Assembly (NCBI GenBank): GCA_964438425.1
Contig: CAYTKM010000005.1
Coordinates: 9,294-73,293 of the forward strand
Source: an uncultured Gammaproteobacteria bacterium
Lineage (GTDB): Bacteria > Cyanobacteriota > Vampirovibrionia > LMEP-6097
Direction: 5' to 3'
DNA: 64,000 bases
Shown: in pieces, positions 703 through 54,872 of the stretch
Layout: each line of letters opens with the position of its first letter
How positions within the stretch are numbered: position 1 is the stretch's first letter
Made by a program: the position numbers and the translations under genes
The notes under the pieces: generated by a model
Databases searched by the model: none
What the model was told of the DNA's origin: nothing
The model's input: only the letters and a program-made list of their open reading frames with translations

Positions 703-1251
703 ATGAATGACTGGCAAGTGGCTGTTTACCCTACGGATACTGTTTGGGGATTAGTAGGTAAGTTTAACGAGGAAAATTATCATAAAATTTATGATTTTAA
801 GCAGCGTGATCGCGATAAACCGTTAATTTTATTTACGAATAATATCGAAACTATAAAAAAGTACTCTATTATCGATAGTAAATTACTCGAAAAAGTATGT
901 GAGAAGTACTGGCCTGGCGCGCTTACCGTGATCTGTCTGAAAAATAATCGCCTGCCTGAGTGGTTAAATCCTGAGTTTAAAACCATCGCCTGGCGTATAC
1001 CTGACGTACCTGATCTACTTAAAATTCTAGATCAGCTTGATGAGCCACTTTTAAGCACTAGCGCCAATCTCCAAAGCGAAGCACCTATAGAAAATTCTAC
1101 CGAAGCCCGTGAAAAATTCCAAAATAAAGTGGATTATATCTATGATGGTGATTATCAGGTCTCAGGTGAAGCTAGCACTATCGTTAGTTTAGTTAATGAT
1201 GAATATACTGTGCTTAGACAAGGAGAAGTTGAGTTTGAGCTGGAAAGTTAA
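703..1251 (+). CDS. tsaC: L-threonylcarbamoyladenylate synthase, TsaC/YrdC family
   Basis: YPTDTVWGL motif and a ~185 aa YrdC-size protein. Confidence 0.8.
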   Translation: MNDWQVAVYPTDTVWGLVGKFNEENYHKIYDFKQRDRDKPLILFTNNIETIKKYSIIDSKLLEKVCEKYWPGALTVICLKNNRLPEWLNPEFKTIAWRIPDVPDLLKILDQLDEPLLSTSANLQSEAPIENSTEAREKFQNKVDYIYDGDYQVSGEASTIVSLVNDEYTVLRQGEVEFELES

Positions 1252-3248
1252 AAACTAAACGGTATTTTATCAAACTCTTTATTGATAACCGATAAATTAT
1301 CTGGCTCTTTACTGAAGACTAATTTATTAAGATTATTTTCAAGATTTTTAACATATTGAGGGTCTATTTTAGCTGAGCTTTCTTTAACTGCTTTAAAATT
1401 TAACACTGGTTTATTAGTTTTATTATCAAAAGTAATTTGGCTTTTAAACTTATTACCTTCGTTATCTGTATATTCTAGGTAGGTTTGTGGTTTATGAAGT
1501 TCACTTGCTATCACGTAGCCTAGTCTGCCTTTAACAGCACAATCATTTTCATCATAGACTGTAGTAGGCTTCGGTTGTGAGCTTATTAGATTAATTTTAG
1601 AAATATTTTCGCTATCAGGATCTGATTGTTTTAATACGAGCATATCGTCGCTGCCTATTTTGCTTACATCGCTAACTCTTCTTGAATTATCGTGAATATT
1701 TATTGGGATATTATCTTCATCAAGTCCAATTCTAAGTTCAGTGTGTATGGCTATTTTAGATGCTGTTTGCGAGTTACTATCCTTAAATCTTTCGAAATCT
1801 AAATGCTTAAATTCGCTTGGTTTAAATTCGTAAATATGATCATGACTTAACTTTTTGATCTCTTTATTCCTGATGGGGTGAACTATTTTTAAGCTACCTT
1901 CAGGAGGAGTTAATAATTTGAAGATTTGATTAATAGTATCTTTGTTTCTAGGTAAACCAAAAATTAGATTTAACTTGGTTTTAAAATCTAATTTATTTTG
2001 CTGGGCTCTATCATAGATATCTTTTTCTAAAAAATTTAGGTTGTTAAACAATTTCACTTTATTATTAGTTAAAAAGTCTATTGTATTTATTTTAGGTATA
2101 GTATCGTAGCCATTTTCTATATTATGCAGTAAACAGTTTTCAAAATTTACCTTATGTACAATAGTCTTTTCTAGATCTGCACCTATTAAACGAGAGTTAT
2201 TTAGGTTGGCTGCTGTTAAATCTGTATTAGATAGATTACTATCTTCTATAAAACTTTGGTTTAGCTTAGCTTTATTTAGGTTAGAACCACTTAAATCACT
2301 ATTTTTAAAGCCTGCACCAGTGAGATTAGCTTCAGTAAAATTAGCAATTTTAAGATTACAATCTAAAAATTTAGCACTACTTAAATTACTATTAGTAAAA
2401 TCTGTACCATTTAGATCAACAGCTTTAAACTTTTTGTCACTTAAATCCATATCTGTTAAATCTAAACCTGACAAATCTAAATTTTCTATAGTATCCTGTT
2501 TAGCTAAAATTTTGAATAGCTCTGCTTTAGAAATATGATCTTTCGGTTCTGAATCAGACCAATAAGAACCTTCTAGATTAGTTTTGATAAAGAAATTGCC
2601 ACTAAATTTAGTTATTCCTTTAAAATCACTGTACGATAAATCATTATTTTGAAATTTTACTCCAAAAAATTTAGCACTATCAAAATTAGATTCACTAAAA
2701 TTATTACCTGAAAATATATTATCTCTAAAAAAAGTGACTTTATTAAAGTTTATAGGGTTAGTAGCTTTATTATCTATAAAAGAGCTTTGCTGGAATTCAG
2801 AATTTTTAAAATTAGTTAGATCGAAGCTACAGTTTTTAAAGCTTGATTTCTTAAAAAAGGTAGACCCTAAGTTAGTTTTTTCAAATCTACAATTTTCAAA
2901 ATTAACCTTATCAAATTCCAGACTGGATAAGTTAGTGTTATCGAACTTAACATTTTTAAAATTTACCTGATTTAAATCATCTATATTTCTTAGATCAACG
3001 TCACTCAAATCTAAATTACTAATGTTTAATTTACCTTCTGAATCGCGATTTTTATCATTAAATAGCTCTTTAACATTATTAGGATTAGTAATTTTGACTA
3101 GTTTTGCAGCACTGTCTCTTAAATTAGTGTGTTTAGTTTCTGTAGTACTTAAATCTAAATTATCTCTATTAGATTGTGTATTTCTAGTTAACGGTTTAAA
3201 TACATGTGTCTCTTTAGCGTCATTATTAGTATTATAAGGATTAATCAT
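1248..3248 (-). CDS. pentapeptide-repeat protein with a non-repeat C-terminal region
   Basis: Dozens of A(D/N)LxG-type pentads (NLSGLDLTDMDLSD, ANLTGAGFKNSDLSGSNL) in the first ~380 aa. The remaining ~280 aa are non-repetitive. Confidence 0.75.
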   Translation of the reverse strand: MINPYNTNNDAKETHVFKPLTRNTQSNRDNLDLSTTETKHTNLRDSAAKLVKITNPNNVKELFNDKNRDSEGKLNISNLDLSDVDLRNIDDLNQVNFKNVKFDNTNLSSLEFDKVNFENCRFEKTNLGSTFFKKSSFKNCSFDLTNFKNSEFQQSSFIDNKATNPINFNKVTFFRDNIFSGNNFSESNFDSAKFFGVKFQNNDLSYSDFKGITKFSGNFFIKTNLEGSYWSDSEPKDHISKAELFKILAKQDTIENLDLSGLDLTDMDLSDKKFKAVDLNGTDFTNSNLSSAKFLDCNLKIANFTEANLTGAGFKNSDLSGSNLNKAKLNQSFIEDSNLSNTDLTAANLNNSRLIGADLEKTIVHKVNFENCLLHNIENGYDTIPKINTIDFLTNNKVKLFNNLNFLEKDIYDRAQQNKLDFKTKLNLIFGLPRNKDTINQIFKLLTPPEGSLKIVHPIRNKEIKKLSHDHIYEFKPSEFKHLDFERFKDSNSQTASKIAIHTELRIGLDEDNIPINIHDNSRRVSDVSKIGSDDMLVLKQSDPDSENISKINLISSQPKPTTVYDENDCAVKGRLGYVIASELHKPQTYLEYTDNEGNKFKSQITFDNKTNKPVLNFKAVKESSAKIDPQYVKNLENNLNKLVFSKEPDNLSVINKEFDKIPFSF

Positions 3249-3474: not shown

Positions 3475-4137
3475 TTATTTTGATTGAGTTTTATTCATAA
3501 ATTCAATTAAATTTTTTAAGTCTTCGTTTCTTAGCTTAGTATAGTTTTTTTGATTTAACTTTAAAGCTAAAAATCTTTTTAATTGTTCATCGAATGTAAG
3601 GCATTCACCTGGATCTGATCTTAAATCTTCATAACTATTGTATTGCTTTTTTAAATCCTTAGTTAATTTTAATCTATCAATTTCACTTAAAGTTTTGAAG
3701 TTAATAAATTTTTTATCAGACATAATCTCAGTTTTGTATTCGTTTATTATAAAGCCCTCAAAACAGCAAGGCATACTAATTATAAAATGAGGATTTAAAT
3801 TTTTATTATTCAAGCTGTTTAAATCACGCAATGGTGTTTTAAAAAATTCTTCATTGTTTTCAGGATTTATTTTCCATTGTTTTGCTAGAGCTTTATAAGC
3901 TTCTTCATTTAAATCCTTATCTTCATCTAACATTAGATAAACCTTATTTTTGTGACAGCAGCGTAATGCTTTCATTAAAATTGAACTAGGATTTCCTCCT
4001 GTAGCTGGCTCTATAGTTAAGTTAAGCTTAGTTTTATTTTTTAGAAATACTTCTTTTAAATGCTTAATTAATATATCTTCTGACTTACCTTCAGGGAATA
4101 TAGAAGCTGTAATTTTTTTAGTACGTTTTTTACCCAT
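3475..4137 (-). CDS. RloB/DUF4276-like TOPRIM-fold protein (AbiLii-like)
   Basis: N-terminal IFPEGKSE (TOPRIM glutamate), LMLDEDKD (DxD) and a later CCFEGFII motif. The start lies 3 nt after the stop of the upstream ATPase. Confidence 0.55.
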   Translation of the reverse strand: MGKKRTKKITASIFPEGKSEDILIKHLKEVFLKNKTKLNLTIEPATGGNPSSILMKALRCCHKNKVYLMLDEDKDLNEEAYKALAKQWKINPENNEEFFKTPLRDLNSLNNKNLNPHFIISMPCCFEGFIINEYKTEIMSDKKFINFKTLSEIDRLKLTKDLKKQYNSYEDLRSDPGECLTFDEQLKRFLALKLNQKNYTKLRNEDLKNLIEFMNKTQSK

Positions 4138-4140
4138 GGA

Positions 4141-5373
4141 CTAAACTTTATAATTATAATCAACTTCTGGCACGGCACCATAAGCACCAGCAATATACTT
4201 ATTATAAAAATTTTCATCTGCTCTAACATCTTCAACATCGTCAAGTCTGTAAACTTCTGTTTCAAAGACTTGATTGTTTTTTTCACAAAGAAATATTTGA
4301 GATTTCTGCCTGTCATTCATTAATTTATGTTGATGAGTTGAAAAAATTAGCTGAGCATTTGCTTCATTTATAGATTTATTTTCAAATAAATTTACTAAAG
4401 CTTTAGCAACAAGTGGATGCATGGCTGTAGATAACTCATCATAAATGGCAACTCCACCATTTTTAAATAATTTATATATTTCTAAAAATAAATCAATAGC
4501 TTTTTGAGTTCCATGAGATTCTTCTATTAGCGGTAAATCAAACTCTTTCTTCTCATGTTTATGTTTACAAAAGATGACATCTTTAATAATGGATTCAGTT
4601 GGATTATCTATAGAAGTAGATTTAATTTGTTTCATAAAGATATCATTAATACATATATCTATACTTTGCAAAAAACTAACTAGTTGATTTTTTAAAATAG
4701 CATCGTTTTTCACGGTTTTAGAATTATTAATCCATTTAATAAGGTTAAAGTCAAATTTAAATTTATTGGGATATTCTAGATTGTCTTTATATAAGTCGTA
4801 GTATTTTAAAGTAATATATTCTAAATTATTAATTGCAGATAAAAAACTTACTCTAGATCTTTTAATTAACCTTTCTTTTTCAATAGTGCTTATTTCAAAA
4901 GTTAAGTCCAGAGGCTTTTTACTGTTTTTTGCTCTATTTACAACAAAAATCTTTTTGTATTTGGAATTTGGCTTATTTTCCTTTTCGGAAAGTTTTTCAT
5001 AAAGGATTTTTTCATTATCAAGATGAATAATATGCTTATAGAAATTTCCTTGGTAAAAAAATTCATTTTCGAATTTAGTGGTTTTATTTTTATGTAACTT
5101 GTGCTTAATTTCCCTAAATTCACTTTCGTCAGGCACATCATCGTAAGAATTTCTAACTAAATTGAACATAAATTCAAACGCTTTTAATATAGTAGATTTA
5201 CCTGAAGCATTCGCTCCTACAAAACAATTTACTAAATTTATATTTAGTTTGTTTTTAATTTGAAAGCATGAGTTATCTACATTAGCTTTATCATGAACAG
5301 TAAAAGTTAATTCCTGTTCAGTACCCACACTTAAAAAATTTTCAACTTTGAAATTTATAATCATAATAGCCAA
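4141..5373 (-). CDS. ABC/AAA_21-type ATPase (AbiLi / RloA / OLD-N-terminal-like)
   Basis: Walker A GANASGKST, Walker B VAIYDE, and H-loop LIFSTHQH near the C-terminus. It is translationally coupled to the RloB-like gene. Confidence 0.65.
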   Translation of the reverse strand: MAIMIINFKVENFLSVGTEQELTFTVHDKANVDNSCFQIKNKLNINLVNCFVGANASGKSTILKAFEFMFNLVRNSYDDVPDESEFREIKHKLHKNKTTKFENEFFYQGNFYKHIIHLDNEKILYEKLSEKENKPNSKYKKIFVVNRAKNSKKPLDLTFEISTIEKERLIKRSRVSFLSAINNLEYITLKYYDLYKDNLEYPNKFKFDFNLIKWINNSKTVKNDAILKNQLVSFLQSIDICINDIFMKQIKSTSIDNPTESIIKDVIFCKHKHEKKEFDLPLIEESHGTQKAIDLFLEIYKLFKNGGVAIYDELSTAMHPLVAKALVNLFENKSINEANAQLIFSTHQHKLMNDRQKSQIFLCEKNNQVFETEVYRLDDVEDVRADENFYNKYIAGAYGAVPEVDYNYKV

Positions 5374-5399
5374 TTACAAACGATTTTTCGTTCGTAATT
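5372..5399. promoter_or_regulatory. near-perfect 12-bp inverted repeat at the 5' end of the ATPase gene
   Basis: aattacaaacga-tttt-tcgttcgtaatt overlaps the annotated TTG start and lies upstream of the first ATG. Confidence 0.3.
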
Positions 5400-5467
5400 A
5401 GATCATACCACTAAATACTTTGAGCTTAAACTAAATTATAAAAAATCTAAACTTCTCTACTATAAAA

Positions 5468-6078: not shown

Positions 6079-7167
6079 CTATAGCCGAAATCTAGAACAG
6101 CTAATCTTGTTTTCTTCAGTTATAAAGCCGTAATCATTTTTAAGTAATTGTGCAAGCTTAGTTTGATCGTAATTAGCGCCATAACCACTAAATATAAACC
6201 TGATATTTAGACTATTAACAGTTTCCTTTAATAAGTTTTCTTTCAATCTTTTTTTATTTAGAAAAGTGTTATTGGGCTGAATTATACACTTATAGGGTAA
6301 AGCCTGCTTTAGTTTTAGCTGTTTTAAACATCTATAATAAAGGTCACTATCTATAAAATATATCTTTAAACTTATTAAAATTTTATTTAAGTGCCTGATT
6401 TCTGGTGAAAACTGTTTTCTAAAAGGCACTGAAATTATATTTAAATATAGCTTTAGTTTATTTACCTGAATGTTTGTAGGAAAGATTTTAAAGTAATTCA
6501 AACGCTCAAAGCTTAAAGAGGTGTCATTAATACTCTTCATAGTATTTAGAGTACTTATAAATTTAATGTTACAGGTTATATCTTTTAGTTTAAAAGTCAG
6601 CTGGTCTCTAAAAATTTTAAACTCTGTTGCATTTAAGTTACTTCTATTTTTACTTAGTACTGTAATAAACGACTTATCTATGGTCGATTTTAAGCTATAA
6701 CTTTTGTTTAGCTGAACTAAATTCAGGCTGATAGGTGAAAAGATAAAAATCTCAGCTTCACTAGTATTGGTTTGATTAATGCTACTCAGGTTTATTTGAT
6801 CTTTAGTAGATTTTAGATGCATAAAGTTAGTAGCGTGCTTACTAAGATAGCTATCTATAAAATAACGTTGATAAACGTAGTTTAGGACTAACTCTAAAGC
6901 CTTATTAAGGCTACTTTTATCATATACAGAACCTAAAATCATTTGATTTTGTAAGTCGAAAATTTTAAATATAGTTTGCCGATAAGCATCAATAAATTTA
7001 GAGTTTAAGCTTAATTCAAATAACTGAGTATTGTCTTTAGTTTTAGCAGTGTCTAGGTCTGATAAACATTGCTGACTTAAATTGTGAGCTTTTGAGAAAC
7101 ACTTTTGATAATAATTATCAGCTTGATACAAGGTATTGCCTTGAAAGTTGATTAAGTTTATATGCAT
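6079..7167 (-). CDS. hypothetical protein
   Basis: 362-aa ORF with no recognisable motif and low-complexity N/K/L-rich composition. Confidence 0.4.
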   Translation of the reverse strand: MHINLINFQGNTLYQADNYYQKCFSKAHNLSQQCLSDLDTAKTKDNTQLFELSLNSKFIDAYRQTIFKIFDLQNQMILGSVYDKSSLNKALELVLNYVYQRYFIDSYLSKHATNFMHLKSTKDQINLSSINQTNTSEAEIFIFSPISLNLVQLNKSYSLKSTIDKSFITVLSKNRSNLNATEFKIFRDQLTFKLKDITCNIKFISTLNTMKSINDTSLSFERLNYFKIFPTNIQVNKLKLYLNIISVPFRKQFSPEIRHLNKILISLKIYFIDSDLYYRCLKQLKLKQALPYKCIIQPNNTFLNKKRLKENLLKETVNSLNIRFIFSGYGANYDQTKLAQLLKNDYGFITEENKISCSRFRL

Positions 7168-14126: not shown

Positions 14127-14600
14127 ATGGACTCTGTAAATAGTGGTGCTTCAAATGGTTATATAACCCCAGTATCAGATAACCCTAATACATTAGATTT
14201 TGAGACTTGGCAATCTCAACGCCAGAAAGTGCGCAAAGATGAACAAAATCAAGTATCTGAAGCACAAAATAACAAAGATCAAGAGCGCTTAAAACAAGCC
14301 AGACTTCATGCAAATTATTATAGCCTCCCAGAACAAAGTCCAGACAATAAAGAAAGTCCATACGTTCAAATGATGGATAAGAAAATATGGGGTGGAAAAT
14401 CAACCGCTGAGATATTGGATTCTACTATATGGTTTAAAGCAGAGAAGAAAATGGGAATGTCTTATAATGTTCTTTCATTACCTATGAAAGTGTACTTCAA
14501 TAAAAACCTAAGAAACATGTCGATGGTATTCCTTGAGAGTCCTAAGCATTTAGTAAATCTGATTAAATACATAATTACAGATCAAAGACCCAAAAAATAA
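14127..14600 (+). CDS. hypothetical protein
   Basis: 157-aa ORF, Gln/Asn-rich N-terminus. Confidence 0.4.
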   Translation: MDSVNSGASNGYITPVSDNPNTLDFETWQSQRQKVRKDEQNQVSEAQNNKDQERLKQARLHANYYSLPEQSPDNKESPYVQMMDKKIWGGKSTAEILDSTIWFKAEKKMGMSYNVLSLPMKVYFNKNLRNMSMVFLESPKHLVNLIKYIITDQRPKK

Positions 14601-14639
14601 GCATTAGCGATTATTTGCTAATGCTTATTTTTTTACTTT

Positions 14640-22238: not shown

Positions 22239-22313
22239 TGGTGCTGGGGATAGGATTCGAACCCACGACCGCCTGATTACAAGTCAGATGCTCTACCAAC
22301 TGAGCTACCCCAG
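22239..22313 (-). tRNA. tRNA-Thr (anticodon TGT)
   Basis: Manual fold: GCTGGGG acceptor, D-arm GCTCAGTTGGTAGAGC, anticodon loop CTTGTAA, T-arm GGTTCGAATCC, 3' CCA. Confidence 0.85.
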
Positions 22314-22429
22314 CTCACGAATTAAAATTATAGCAAAAAGATTTTGAATAACTTTTATTTTGCTAGACTTATAGTTTTTTTTAATTTTTTAGGCAATTAG
22401 GTTTGAAGTAATGCTGTAAAATTGTCCAT

Positions 22430-25813: not shown

Positions 25814-25889
25814 TGGTGGACACTGAAAGATTCGAACTTCCGACCGCCTCGGTGTAAACGAGATGCTCTACCAGCTGAGCTAAGTGTCC
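25814..25889 (-). tRNA. tRNA-Val (anticodon TAC)
   Basis: Manual fold: GGACACT acceptor, anticodon loop TTTACAC, GGTTCGAATC T-arm, CCA end. Confidence 0.85.
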
Positions 25890-54832: not shown

Positions 54833-54872
54833 TAAAAAAGAGGTTACCAAGTTGTTTGGTAACCTCTTTTAA
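54833..54872 (-). terminator. intrinsic terminator downstream of fba
   Basis: An 11-bp perfect stem (agaggttacca/tggtaacctct) with an 8-nt loop, followed on the minus strand by a T6 run. Confidence 0.6.

Follow-up and report, generated by a model that had tools for sequence, protein, structure and literature searches.

A likely AbiL-type ABC ATPase/TOPRIM gene pair between trmL and tsaC in an uncultured member of the Vampirovibrionia

Introduction

Modules that combine an ABC ATPase with a TOPRIM protein, among them Old, Gabija, PARIS and AbiL, form a major class of bacterial immunity. In PARIS, which consists of the ABC ATPase AriA and the DUF4435 TOPRIM tRNase AriB, the ATPase assembly keeps the nuclease inactive until a phage protein binds, and the freed nuclease then cuts tRNA. 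The OLD family (P2 Old of class 1, the Burkholderia and Xanthomonas proteins of class 2, and GajA) also joins an ABC ATPase to a TOPRIM domain, with ExxxE, DxD, [S/T]..E and K as characteristic residues. AbiL has been grouped with the ABC ATPase plus TOPRIM systems (PMC11464382; PMC13064643), and AAA ATPase/TOPRIM_OLD pairs have been validated as toxin-neutraliser pairs with a translation-inhibition signature (PMC10440598). A 2026 preprint describes P2 Old as an abortive tRNase. Here we analyse two adjacent genes, encoding an ATPase and a 220-amino acid (aa) small protein, in a 64,000-nucleotide (nt) stretch of DNA, hereafter the window, from an uncultured bacterium placed in the Vampirovibrionia (contig CAYTKM010000005.1, positions 9,294 to 73,293). 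A first-pass annotation made from the sequence alone had put these genes forward as a two-gene AbiL/OLD-like module.

We consider it likely that the pair is a stand-alone module of the AbiL type, within the OLD superfamily, whose ABC ATPase and separate TOPRIM nuclease act in phage defence. The evidence for this consists of homology, fold, conserved catalytic residues, pairing, a patchy distribution and the absence of the pair from the corresponding junction of a relative. The locus is a clean stand-alone example of such modules, with a nuclease subunit that Pfam does not recognise and PADLOC only just does.

Results and Discussion

An ATPase resembling AbiLi

In PADLOC, the ATPase matched the AbiLi model (PDLC02335) with an E value of 2.1e-69 (232 bits), far ahead of HEC-01A, mad3, PtuA, GajA, Old and the generic models labelled AriA. 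The only AriA-labelled models to match were AAA_21/AAA_15-like ones (6e-23 and 2e-15), and the matches to mad3 (3.5e-10) and PtuA (about 1e-9) were weak. In Pfam, the protein matched AAA_21 (1.1e-22; 81.9 bits with a cut-off of 27) and AAA_15 (1.5e-12). All NCBIfam scores lay below their cut-offs, with 23.6 bits for antiphage_MADS3 (cut-off 420) and 17.7 bits for recF (E 0.0016; cut-off 172). The first-pass proposal of an AbiL/OLD-like module thus agrees with PADLOC and Pfam for the ATPase, and the two-gene arrangement described below recurs in dozens of loci.

The sequence has the expected elements of an ABC ATPase. In the numbering of its 407-aa form, these are a Walker A motif (GANASGKST, residues 50-58), an ABC signature-like segment (ESHGTQK, 282-288), a Walker B motif (VAIYDE, ending in D309-E310) and an H-loop (FSTHQH, H344), all invariant or nearly so in 44 homologues. 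The C-terminal tail, YRLDDVEGVRNDENF..KY.AG.YG, is conserved as well. A search at E≤1e-10 recovered 601 homologues, the nearest of which are only 35-40% identical and are scattered phylogenetically, in metagenome-assembled genomes (MAGs) named as Rickettsiales, Alphaproteobacteria, Pacebacteria, Magasanikbacteria and Clostridia. This distance, together with a partner that has no direct Pfam match, fits the earlier suggestion that the module is a divergent variant.

The AlphaFold (AF2) model of the ATPase is of high confidence (pLDDT 91.9, pTM 0.90), and in Foldseek its closest structures were Rad50 heads, Septu PtuA and retron PtuA (E 7e-12 to 1e-9). Among defence ATPases of solved structure, Septu PtuA and retron-associated PtuA come nearest (E about 1e-10); a sequence search of the PDB detected no chain. 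The protein is a Rad50/SMC-like ABC ATPase of the AbiLi type, and we presume that it serves as the sensor and regulator subunit. It also covers positions 4-406 of the 1071-column profile phrog_5836 (E 3.7e-58), and since the profile extends so far beyond the match, some phage versions of the ATPase may have a far greater length and perhaps include a fused effector.

A small protein homologous to RloB and AbiLii

The small protein carries the motifs IFPEGKSE (residues 13-20), LMLDEDKD (68-75) and CFEGFII (125-131). Its AlphaFold model (pLDDT 92, pTM 0.88) most resembles TOPRIM nucleases that stand alone or belong to the OLD family, with structure-comparison scores of 9.2 for PH0156 (2p62), 8.2 for the C-terminal region of a class 2 OLD protein (6nk8), 7.4 for a class 1 OLD protein (6p74), 6.5 for GajA (8u7i) and 5.9 for AriB (8v46). 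PH0156 is the HHpred template reported for a lactococcal DUF4435 AriB (PMC11381338). Foldseek placed OLD C-terminal regions near the top of its matches, weakly (E 7e-3, probability 0.94).

Residues E16, G17, E20, G47, G48, D71, D73, W88, S121, P123 and K163 are invariant in 34 relatives, nearly all of which have E or D at position 127. Burkholderia OLD coordinates two Mg2+ ions through E400/E404, D455/D457, T506/E508 and K562, and needs these residues to cleave (PMC6755086). The ExxxE, DxD, S and K residues of the small protein parallel these in order and spacing, which points to E16, E20, D71, D73, S121, E127 and K163 as its putative active site. The features of an OLD-type TOPRIM domain are all found here: a four-stranded core, the conserved Glu and DxD, the second-metal residues and a Lys in the helical domain. 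We conclude from sequence and predicted fold that the small protein is a divergent TOPRIM protein of the RloB/AbiLii kind whose predicted active site is intact, and presume that it is the nuclease effector of the pair.

Relatives of this protein are hard to reach by routine searches. NCBIfam and PHROGs gave nothing usable, tblastn against plasmids gave no match, and a sequence search of the PDB with profiles of the partner family and of RloB returned nothing real, the matches to PU.1 and OT3 being spurious. A word-indexed search found one true relative, P0003, which shares 40% identity with the query across 59% of its length. The family was recovered by searching 1.84 billion representatives exhaustively with HMMER and a two-sequence profile: 180 proteins (clusters) reached E≤1e-3 and 76 of them E≤1e-10, almost all with a length near 200 aa. 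The family is thus small and rare. When 68 of its members were scanned singly at E≤0.01, 12 matched Pfam RloB (best 3.2e-8), 27 matched PADLOC AbiLii (best 2.1e-9), two matched mad4 weakly in PADLOC and one matched DUF4276, at E 0.0099. DUF4435/AriB was matched at this threshold neither by the window protein nor by any of the 68.

Two further comparisons link the family to RloB. Alignment of a profile of 34 close relatives of the small protein (alignment A5) with one of 21 canonical, Pfam-positive RloB proteins (A4) in hhalign gave a probability of 88.8% (E 2.5e-6); the aligned part is the N-terminal 65 columns, which extend from the TOPRIM Glu as far as the DxD. A basic N-terminus (MGKKKR in the window protein), EG..E, GG, DxD and S..(F/L)E are common to the small protein and to RloB/AbiLii, and the S-x-P-C-F-E-G-F of the window protein takes the place of the W-S-N-x-x-F-E-L-W-x-L-L-H-F of canonical RloB. 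Intermediate sequences connect the two groups: partners encoded downstream of the ATPase homologues on viral contigs match both profiles, as does a protein of a Vibrio plasmid annotated by PGAP as 'RloB domain-containing protein', which the hidden Markov model (HMM) of the window type reaches at 3.9e-16. An HMM built from ten intermediate partners finds the window protein at 9.1e-15 and canonical Pfam-positive RloB proteins of Clostridium at 2.5e-9 to 1.5e-5. The intermediates are short partners, some 170-180 aa long, that carry the motif GSxPC[FL]EG[LF]L (viral contigs L085-L092, L110 and L112, and L084 at 4275-4814); they match both profiles strongly and lie between the window-type partner and canonical RloB. 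Homology of the small protein to RloB/AbiLii at the family level is thus established, through the intermediates, the AbiLii match and the structure.

A constant pair in changing surroundings

The arrangement of ATPase followed by TOPRIM partner is constant among relatives of the module. In five independent close loci (L004, L005, L006, L008 and L010), the ATPase gene was followed in every case by a window-type partner of 199-211 aa, with a gap of 0-12 nt or an overlap. An RloB-type open reading frame (ORF) lies directly downstream of each of four plasmid ATPase homologues (26-31% identical), as found with the partner HMMs, and these partners are annotated 'RloB family protein' or 'RloB domain-containing protein'. 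We also searched viral contigs with the ATPase alignment and then sought the partner with the partner HMMs: 48 contigs bear ATPase homologues, 44 of them with sequence left beyond the ATPase gene, and in 41 of these 44 an RloB-type ORF comes directly after it. Counted over distinct related loci, among them some in mobile or defence islands and on viral contigs, an RloB-type partner gene immediately follows the ATPase gene in 43 of 45. ATPases of the clade 35-40% identical to that of the window have only the window-type partner, and those that are 26-31% identical have canonical RloB.

The spacing in the window is equally tight. The ATPase stop codon and the small-protein start read TAG-TCC-ATG (4143..4135, with the stop at 4143..4141 and the ATG at 4137), in agreement with the 3-nt distance of the first-pass annotation, and no Shine-Dalgarno sequence is visible. 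Given this spacing and the missing Shine-Dalgarno sequence, the two genes are likely to form one operon with coupled translation, which suggests that both proteins would be held at a fixed ratio.

The surroundings of the pair vary from locus to locus. The L005 pair adjoins AbiEi/AbiEii and a serine recombinase, the L008 pair adjoins a PIN pair, and the L006, L010 and window pairs have ordinary metabolic or housekeeping neighbours. The gene for P0003, the closest homologue of the small protein, lies in a mobile or defence island (L004, 1-16967) with two tyrosine recombinases, rve and DDE transposases, an AlpA-like regulator, a restriction-like set of SNF2 helicase, DUF4391 and N6_N4 methylase genes, and a separate 829-aa SMC_N/AAA_15 ATPase. 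Overall, the distribution is patchy and takes in unrelated phyla as well as plasmids and viral contigs. Defence and toxin-antitoxin modules usually show this signature, in which the pair stays the same while its surroundings vary and are often mobile or rich in defence genes.

That signature raises the question of whether the two genes are a selfish toxin-antitoxin or addiction module, with the TOPRIM protein as toxin and the ATPase as antitoxin, that maintains itself in the chromosome and confers no meaningful protection against phages. The validated toxin-neutraliser behaviour of AAA ATPase/TOPRIM_OLD pairs (PMC10440598) would fit such a role, as would the other toxin-antitoxin modules beside the pair in L005 and L008 and the isolation of the window pair among housekeeping genes. 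We nevertheless think it unlikely: the best-studied relatives, AbiL, PARIS, Old and Gabija, all restrict phages (PMC11464382; PMC13064643), the module is found on viral contigs and in a defence island, and the two roles are compatible in any case, PARIS being both.

The neighbours also bear on whether the pair belongs as an accessory to a restriction-modification system or another larger, multi-gene system, like RloA/RloB in the type I restriction-modification loci of Campylobacter or mad3/mad4 in MADS, of which the rest is elsewhere or lost. RloB was first described within type I restriction-modification loci (PMC10440598), the L004 pair adjoins the SNF2/DUF4391/methylase set, and there are the weak mad3 match of the ATPase and the weak mad4 matches among partners. 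However, no methylase, hsd gene or helicase is encoded within 10 kb of the pair in the window, the MADS3 score is far under its cut-off, and the pair stays constant while its neighbours change in every related locus. We give this explanation very little weight and retain the stand-alone AbiL-type module.

The trmL-tsaC junction

In the direction of the minus strand, the window carries a radical-SAM gene, a 362-aa orphan, trmL (SpoU), the pair and a gene for a 666-aa pentapeptide-repeat protein, followed by a convergent tsaC (Sua5/YrdC) and then hpf. The pair therefore does lie between trmL and tsaC, as first described, though it shares this interval with the pentapeptide-repeat gene. In the Melainabacteria MAG GL75, the radical-SAM gene, an ORF and trmL occur in the same order (L067), and trmL converges on tsaC with overlapping ends (L080). 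From this direct abutment we conclude that the 4.2 kb trmL-tsaC interval, comprising the pair and the pentapeptide-repeat gene, is lineage-specific. Two further relatives, whose trmL products are 57-59% identical, keep the radical-SAM gene, ORF and trmL but have unrelated genes, and no pair, downstream. The nearest matches to trmL, the radical-SAM gene and tsaC of the window come from MAGs labelled Melainabacteria, 'uncultured cyanobacterium' and 'uncultured Gammaproteobacteria'. The comparison of this interval between genomes that had been suggested at the outset thus shows an empty junction in GL75 and no conservation of the pair there in the relatives examined, which are distant. The pair was apparently inserted between trmL and tsaC.

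These data also bear on a housekeeping role in DNA repair or recombination, in which a Rad50/RecF-like ATPase and a TOPRIM nuclease would be co-expressed with trmL. The fold of the ATPase is nearest Rad50, and the pair is co-directional with trmL, 94 nt downstream, with no strong promoter or canonical terminator called in between. Such a role is nonetheless highly improbable, given that the pair is missing from the same junction in GL75 and is absent from the two other relatives, and that the partner family is very rare and scattered over phyla that are not related, over plasmids and over viral contigs. In addition, the best HMM match of the ATPase is AbiLi, not RecF, RecN or SbcC.

Several observations weigh against an AbiL-type defence module. 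Scanned directly, the small protein matched neither RloB (PF13707) nor DUF4276 (PF14103) of Pfam even at E≤1, reached only E 0.15 with OLD-like_TOPRIM, and matched PADLOC AbiLii at E 0.002 with only 16.8 bits. The overlap with canonical RloB in hhalign is restricted to the N-terminal 65 columns, and the C-terminal helical half differs. Without a significant Pfam match and with so low an AbiLii score, the system might be left unlabelled by an automated caller. At the locus itself, the relatives used for the insertion comparison are distant (trmL 53-79% and tsaC 41% identical), and there is no signature of mobility, since no integrase or transposase and no flanking direct repeats surround the pair, no tRNA lies within 16 kb, and the GC content of the pair (23-28%) is just slightly below that of its neighbours. 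Finally, the mechanism of lactococcal AbiL itself is stated to be still unknown (PMC13064643).

By threshold, then, the small protein is not a member of Pfam RloB. The first-pass annotation had called it an RloB/DUF4276 TOPRIM protein, and had named a missing HMM match to these families as grounds for giving up its proposal. Formally, no such match was found in the direct Pfam scan, yet the AbiLii value, the intermediates and the structure support homology. Family and fold uphold the RloB/AbiLii lineage, without a direct Pfam match, and DUF4276 is rejected, the single match among family members being marginal.

Comparison with described systems and a possible mode of action

The closest counterparts are AbiL of Lactococcus lactis (AbiLi plus AbiLii) and RloA/RloB-type pairs, by which we mean those annotated 'ATP-binding protein' plus 'RloB family protein'. 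In both, as in the window, an ATPase gene of about 400 aa is followed by an adjacent, co-directional TOPRIM gene of about 200 aa, and the ATPase in the window is an AAA_21/AAA_15 protein of the AbiLi type. The module is a divergent member of these known pairs, with no new component or architecture. PARIS has the same split architecture, with both of its proteins from the same superfamilies, and offers the best available mechanistic model for the pair by analogy.

Membership in several other systems was rejected. For PARIS, there is no match to DUF4435 (PF14491) or AriB, the AriA-labelled matches are far weaker than AbiLi, and the partner has 220 aa, compared with about 300 aa for AriB. The fused OLD proteins of classes 1 and 2 differ from the two separate ORFs found here, and no UvrD-like helicase is encoded within 10 kb; likewise, the domains of GajA are fused in Gabija, and no UvrD-like GajB partner is nearby. 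Septu has as effector PtuB, an HNH nuclease rather than a TOPRIM protein, and the PADLOC match to its ATPase is weak. MADS was set aside on the low MADS3 score and the lack of a nearby methylase.

Complex formation, the trigger, the substrate and an abortive-infection phenotype can be proposed by analogy with PARIS, P2 Old and the AAA/TOPRIM_OLD pairs. An oligomer of the ATPase, acting as sensor and antitoxin, would bind the TOPRIM nuclease and hold it inactive. Upon sensing of a phage-derived cue by the ATPase, the nuclease would be released or activated, and would then cut nucleic acid through a two-metal TOPRIM site formed by E16/E20, D71/D73, S121/E127 and K163. The substrate would somewhat more likely be tRNA or another RNA than DNA. 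Cleavage could then halt translation or replication and so abort the infection.

The only unusual feature of the module is its divergent nuclease subunit with a co-evolving ATPase clade, which current profiles under-detect. The window-type partner has the signature MGKKKR...EG..E...GGNP...DEDxD...SxPxC[FV]E[GS] over about 200-220 aa and is invisible to Pfam. More tentatively, and with some doubt on our part, the window-type partner and its ATPase clade might constitute a distinct AbiL-like sub-type with a trigger and substrate of its own (for example, a particular tRNA), spread horizontally into reduced or uncultured lineages (Melainabacteria-like, Rickettsiales and candidate phyla radiation, CPR) and missed by annotators. 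The clade that present profiles under-call comprises about 180 sequence clusters, and the A5 alignment of the partner and the A6 alignment of the ATPase could seed an improved profile for it.

Gene starts, hairpin and neighbouring features

The features of the locus are listed in Table 1. The ATPase had been described as a 410-aa protein, which holds for the TTG start; we take the ATG at 5364 as the likelier start because the metagenome gene callers and the homologues agree on it. It is the position chosen by the callers and the first methionine of the 44-homologue alignment, in which the consensus MIxxFKxxNF corresponds to MIINFKVENF in the window.

Table 1. Positions of the gene pair and of associated features in the window
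Feature	Position	Strand	Remarks
ATPase gene	4141..5364	minus	ATG start at 5364, 407 aa
ATPase ORF, alternative start	4141..5373	minus	TTG start at 5373, 410 aa
Small-protein gene (TOPRIM partner)	3475..4137	minus	220 aa
Spacer between ATPase stop and small-protein ATG	4138..4140	minus	3 nt, read directly from the sequence
Pentapeptide-repeat protein gene	1248..3248	minus	666 aa, Pfam Pentapeptide_4 at 7e-32
Hairpin in the trmL-ATPase intergenic region	5370..5401	minus	14-base pair (bp) stem, 4-nt loop, one G.U pair (minus-strand RNA)

The 12-bp inverted repeat noted earlier at the translation start is real, its arms (5372-5383 and 5388-5399) being complementary as DNA at 11 of 12 positions. 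The hairpin covers the alternative TTG, as had been reported, and ends 5 nt before the likelier ATG. The 128-nt minus-strand RNA from 5340 to 5467 folds at -28 kcal/mol, with a z score of -3.6 relative to shuffled sequences. About eight distinct sites in the window have a stem of 12 nt or more with no more than one mismatch; counted raw, with nested stems included, there are 14, compared with a raw mean of 4.7 in Markov simulations. The repeat is therefore statistically unremarkable, stems of this kind being only modestly enriched. A scan of the gap between trmL and the ATPase gene found no convincing promoter and no canonical (T-run) terminator. The hairpin could terminate or attenuate transcription that comes from trmL, or it could mask the region where the ribosome binds.

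The pentapeptide-repeat gene was considered as a third component of the module and rejected, as other loci do not keep it next to the module. At its 3′ end it shares 4 nt with the stop of tsaC, and several long ORFs opposite it resemble repeat-driven artefacts. The 362-aa ORF between the radical-SAM gene and trmL (6079-7167, minus strand) has no match in Pfam and none by tblastn in relatives; in L012, L013 and L067, its place is taken by ORFs of 253-335 aa that look unrelated. Two tRNA genes (22242-22314 and 25817-25889, minus strand), distant from the module, are the sole matches at the Rfam gathering level in the window. Two of the other stem sites counted above are perfect inverted repeats of 12-14 bp, at 14597-14628, adjoining the end of an ORF (14127..14600), and at 54838-54868, both in intergenic, terminator-like positions. 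Both probably serve as terminators without a canonical T-run, which a simple scan would miss in this AT-rich genome.

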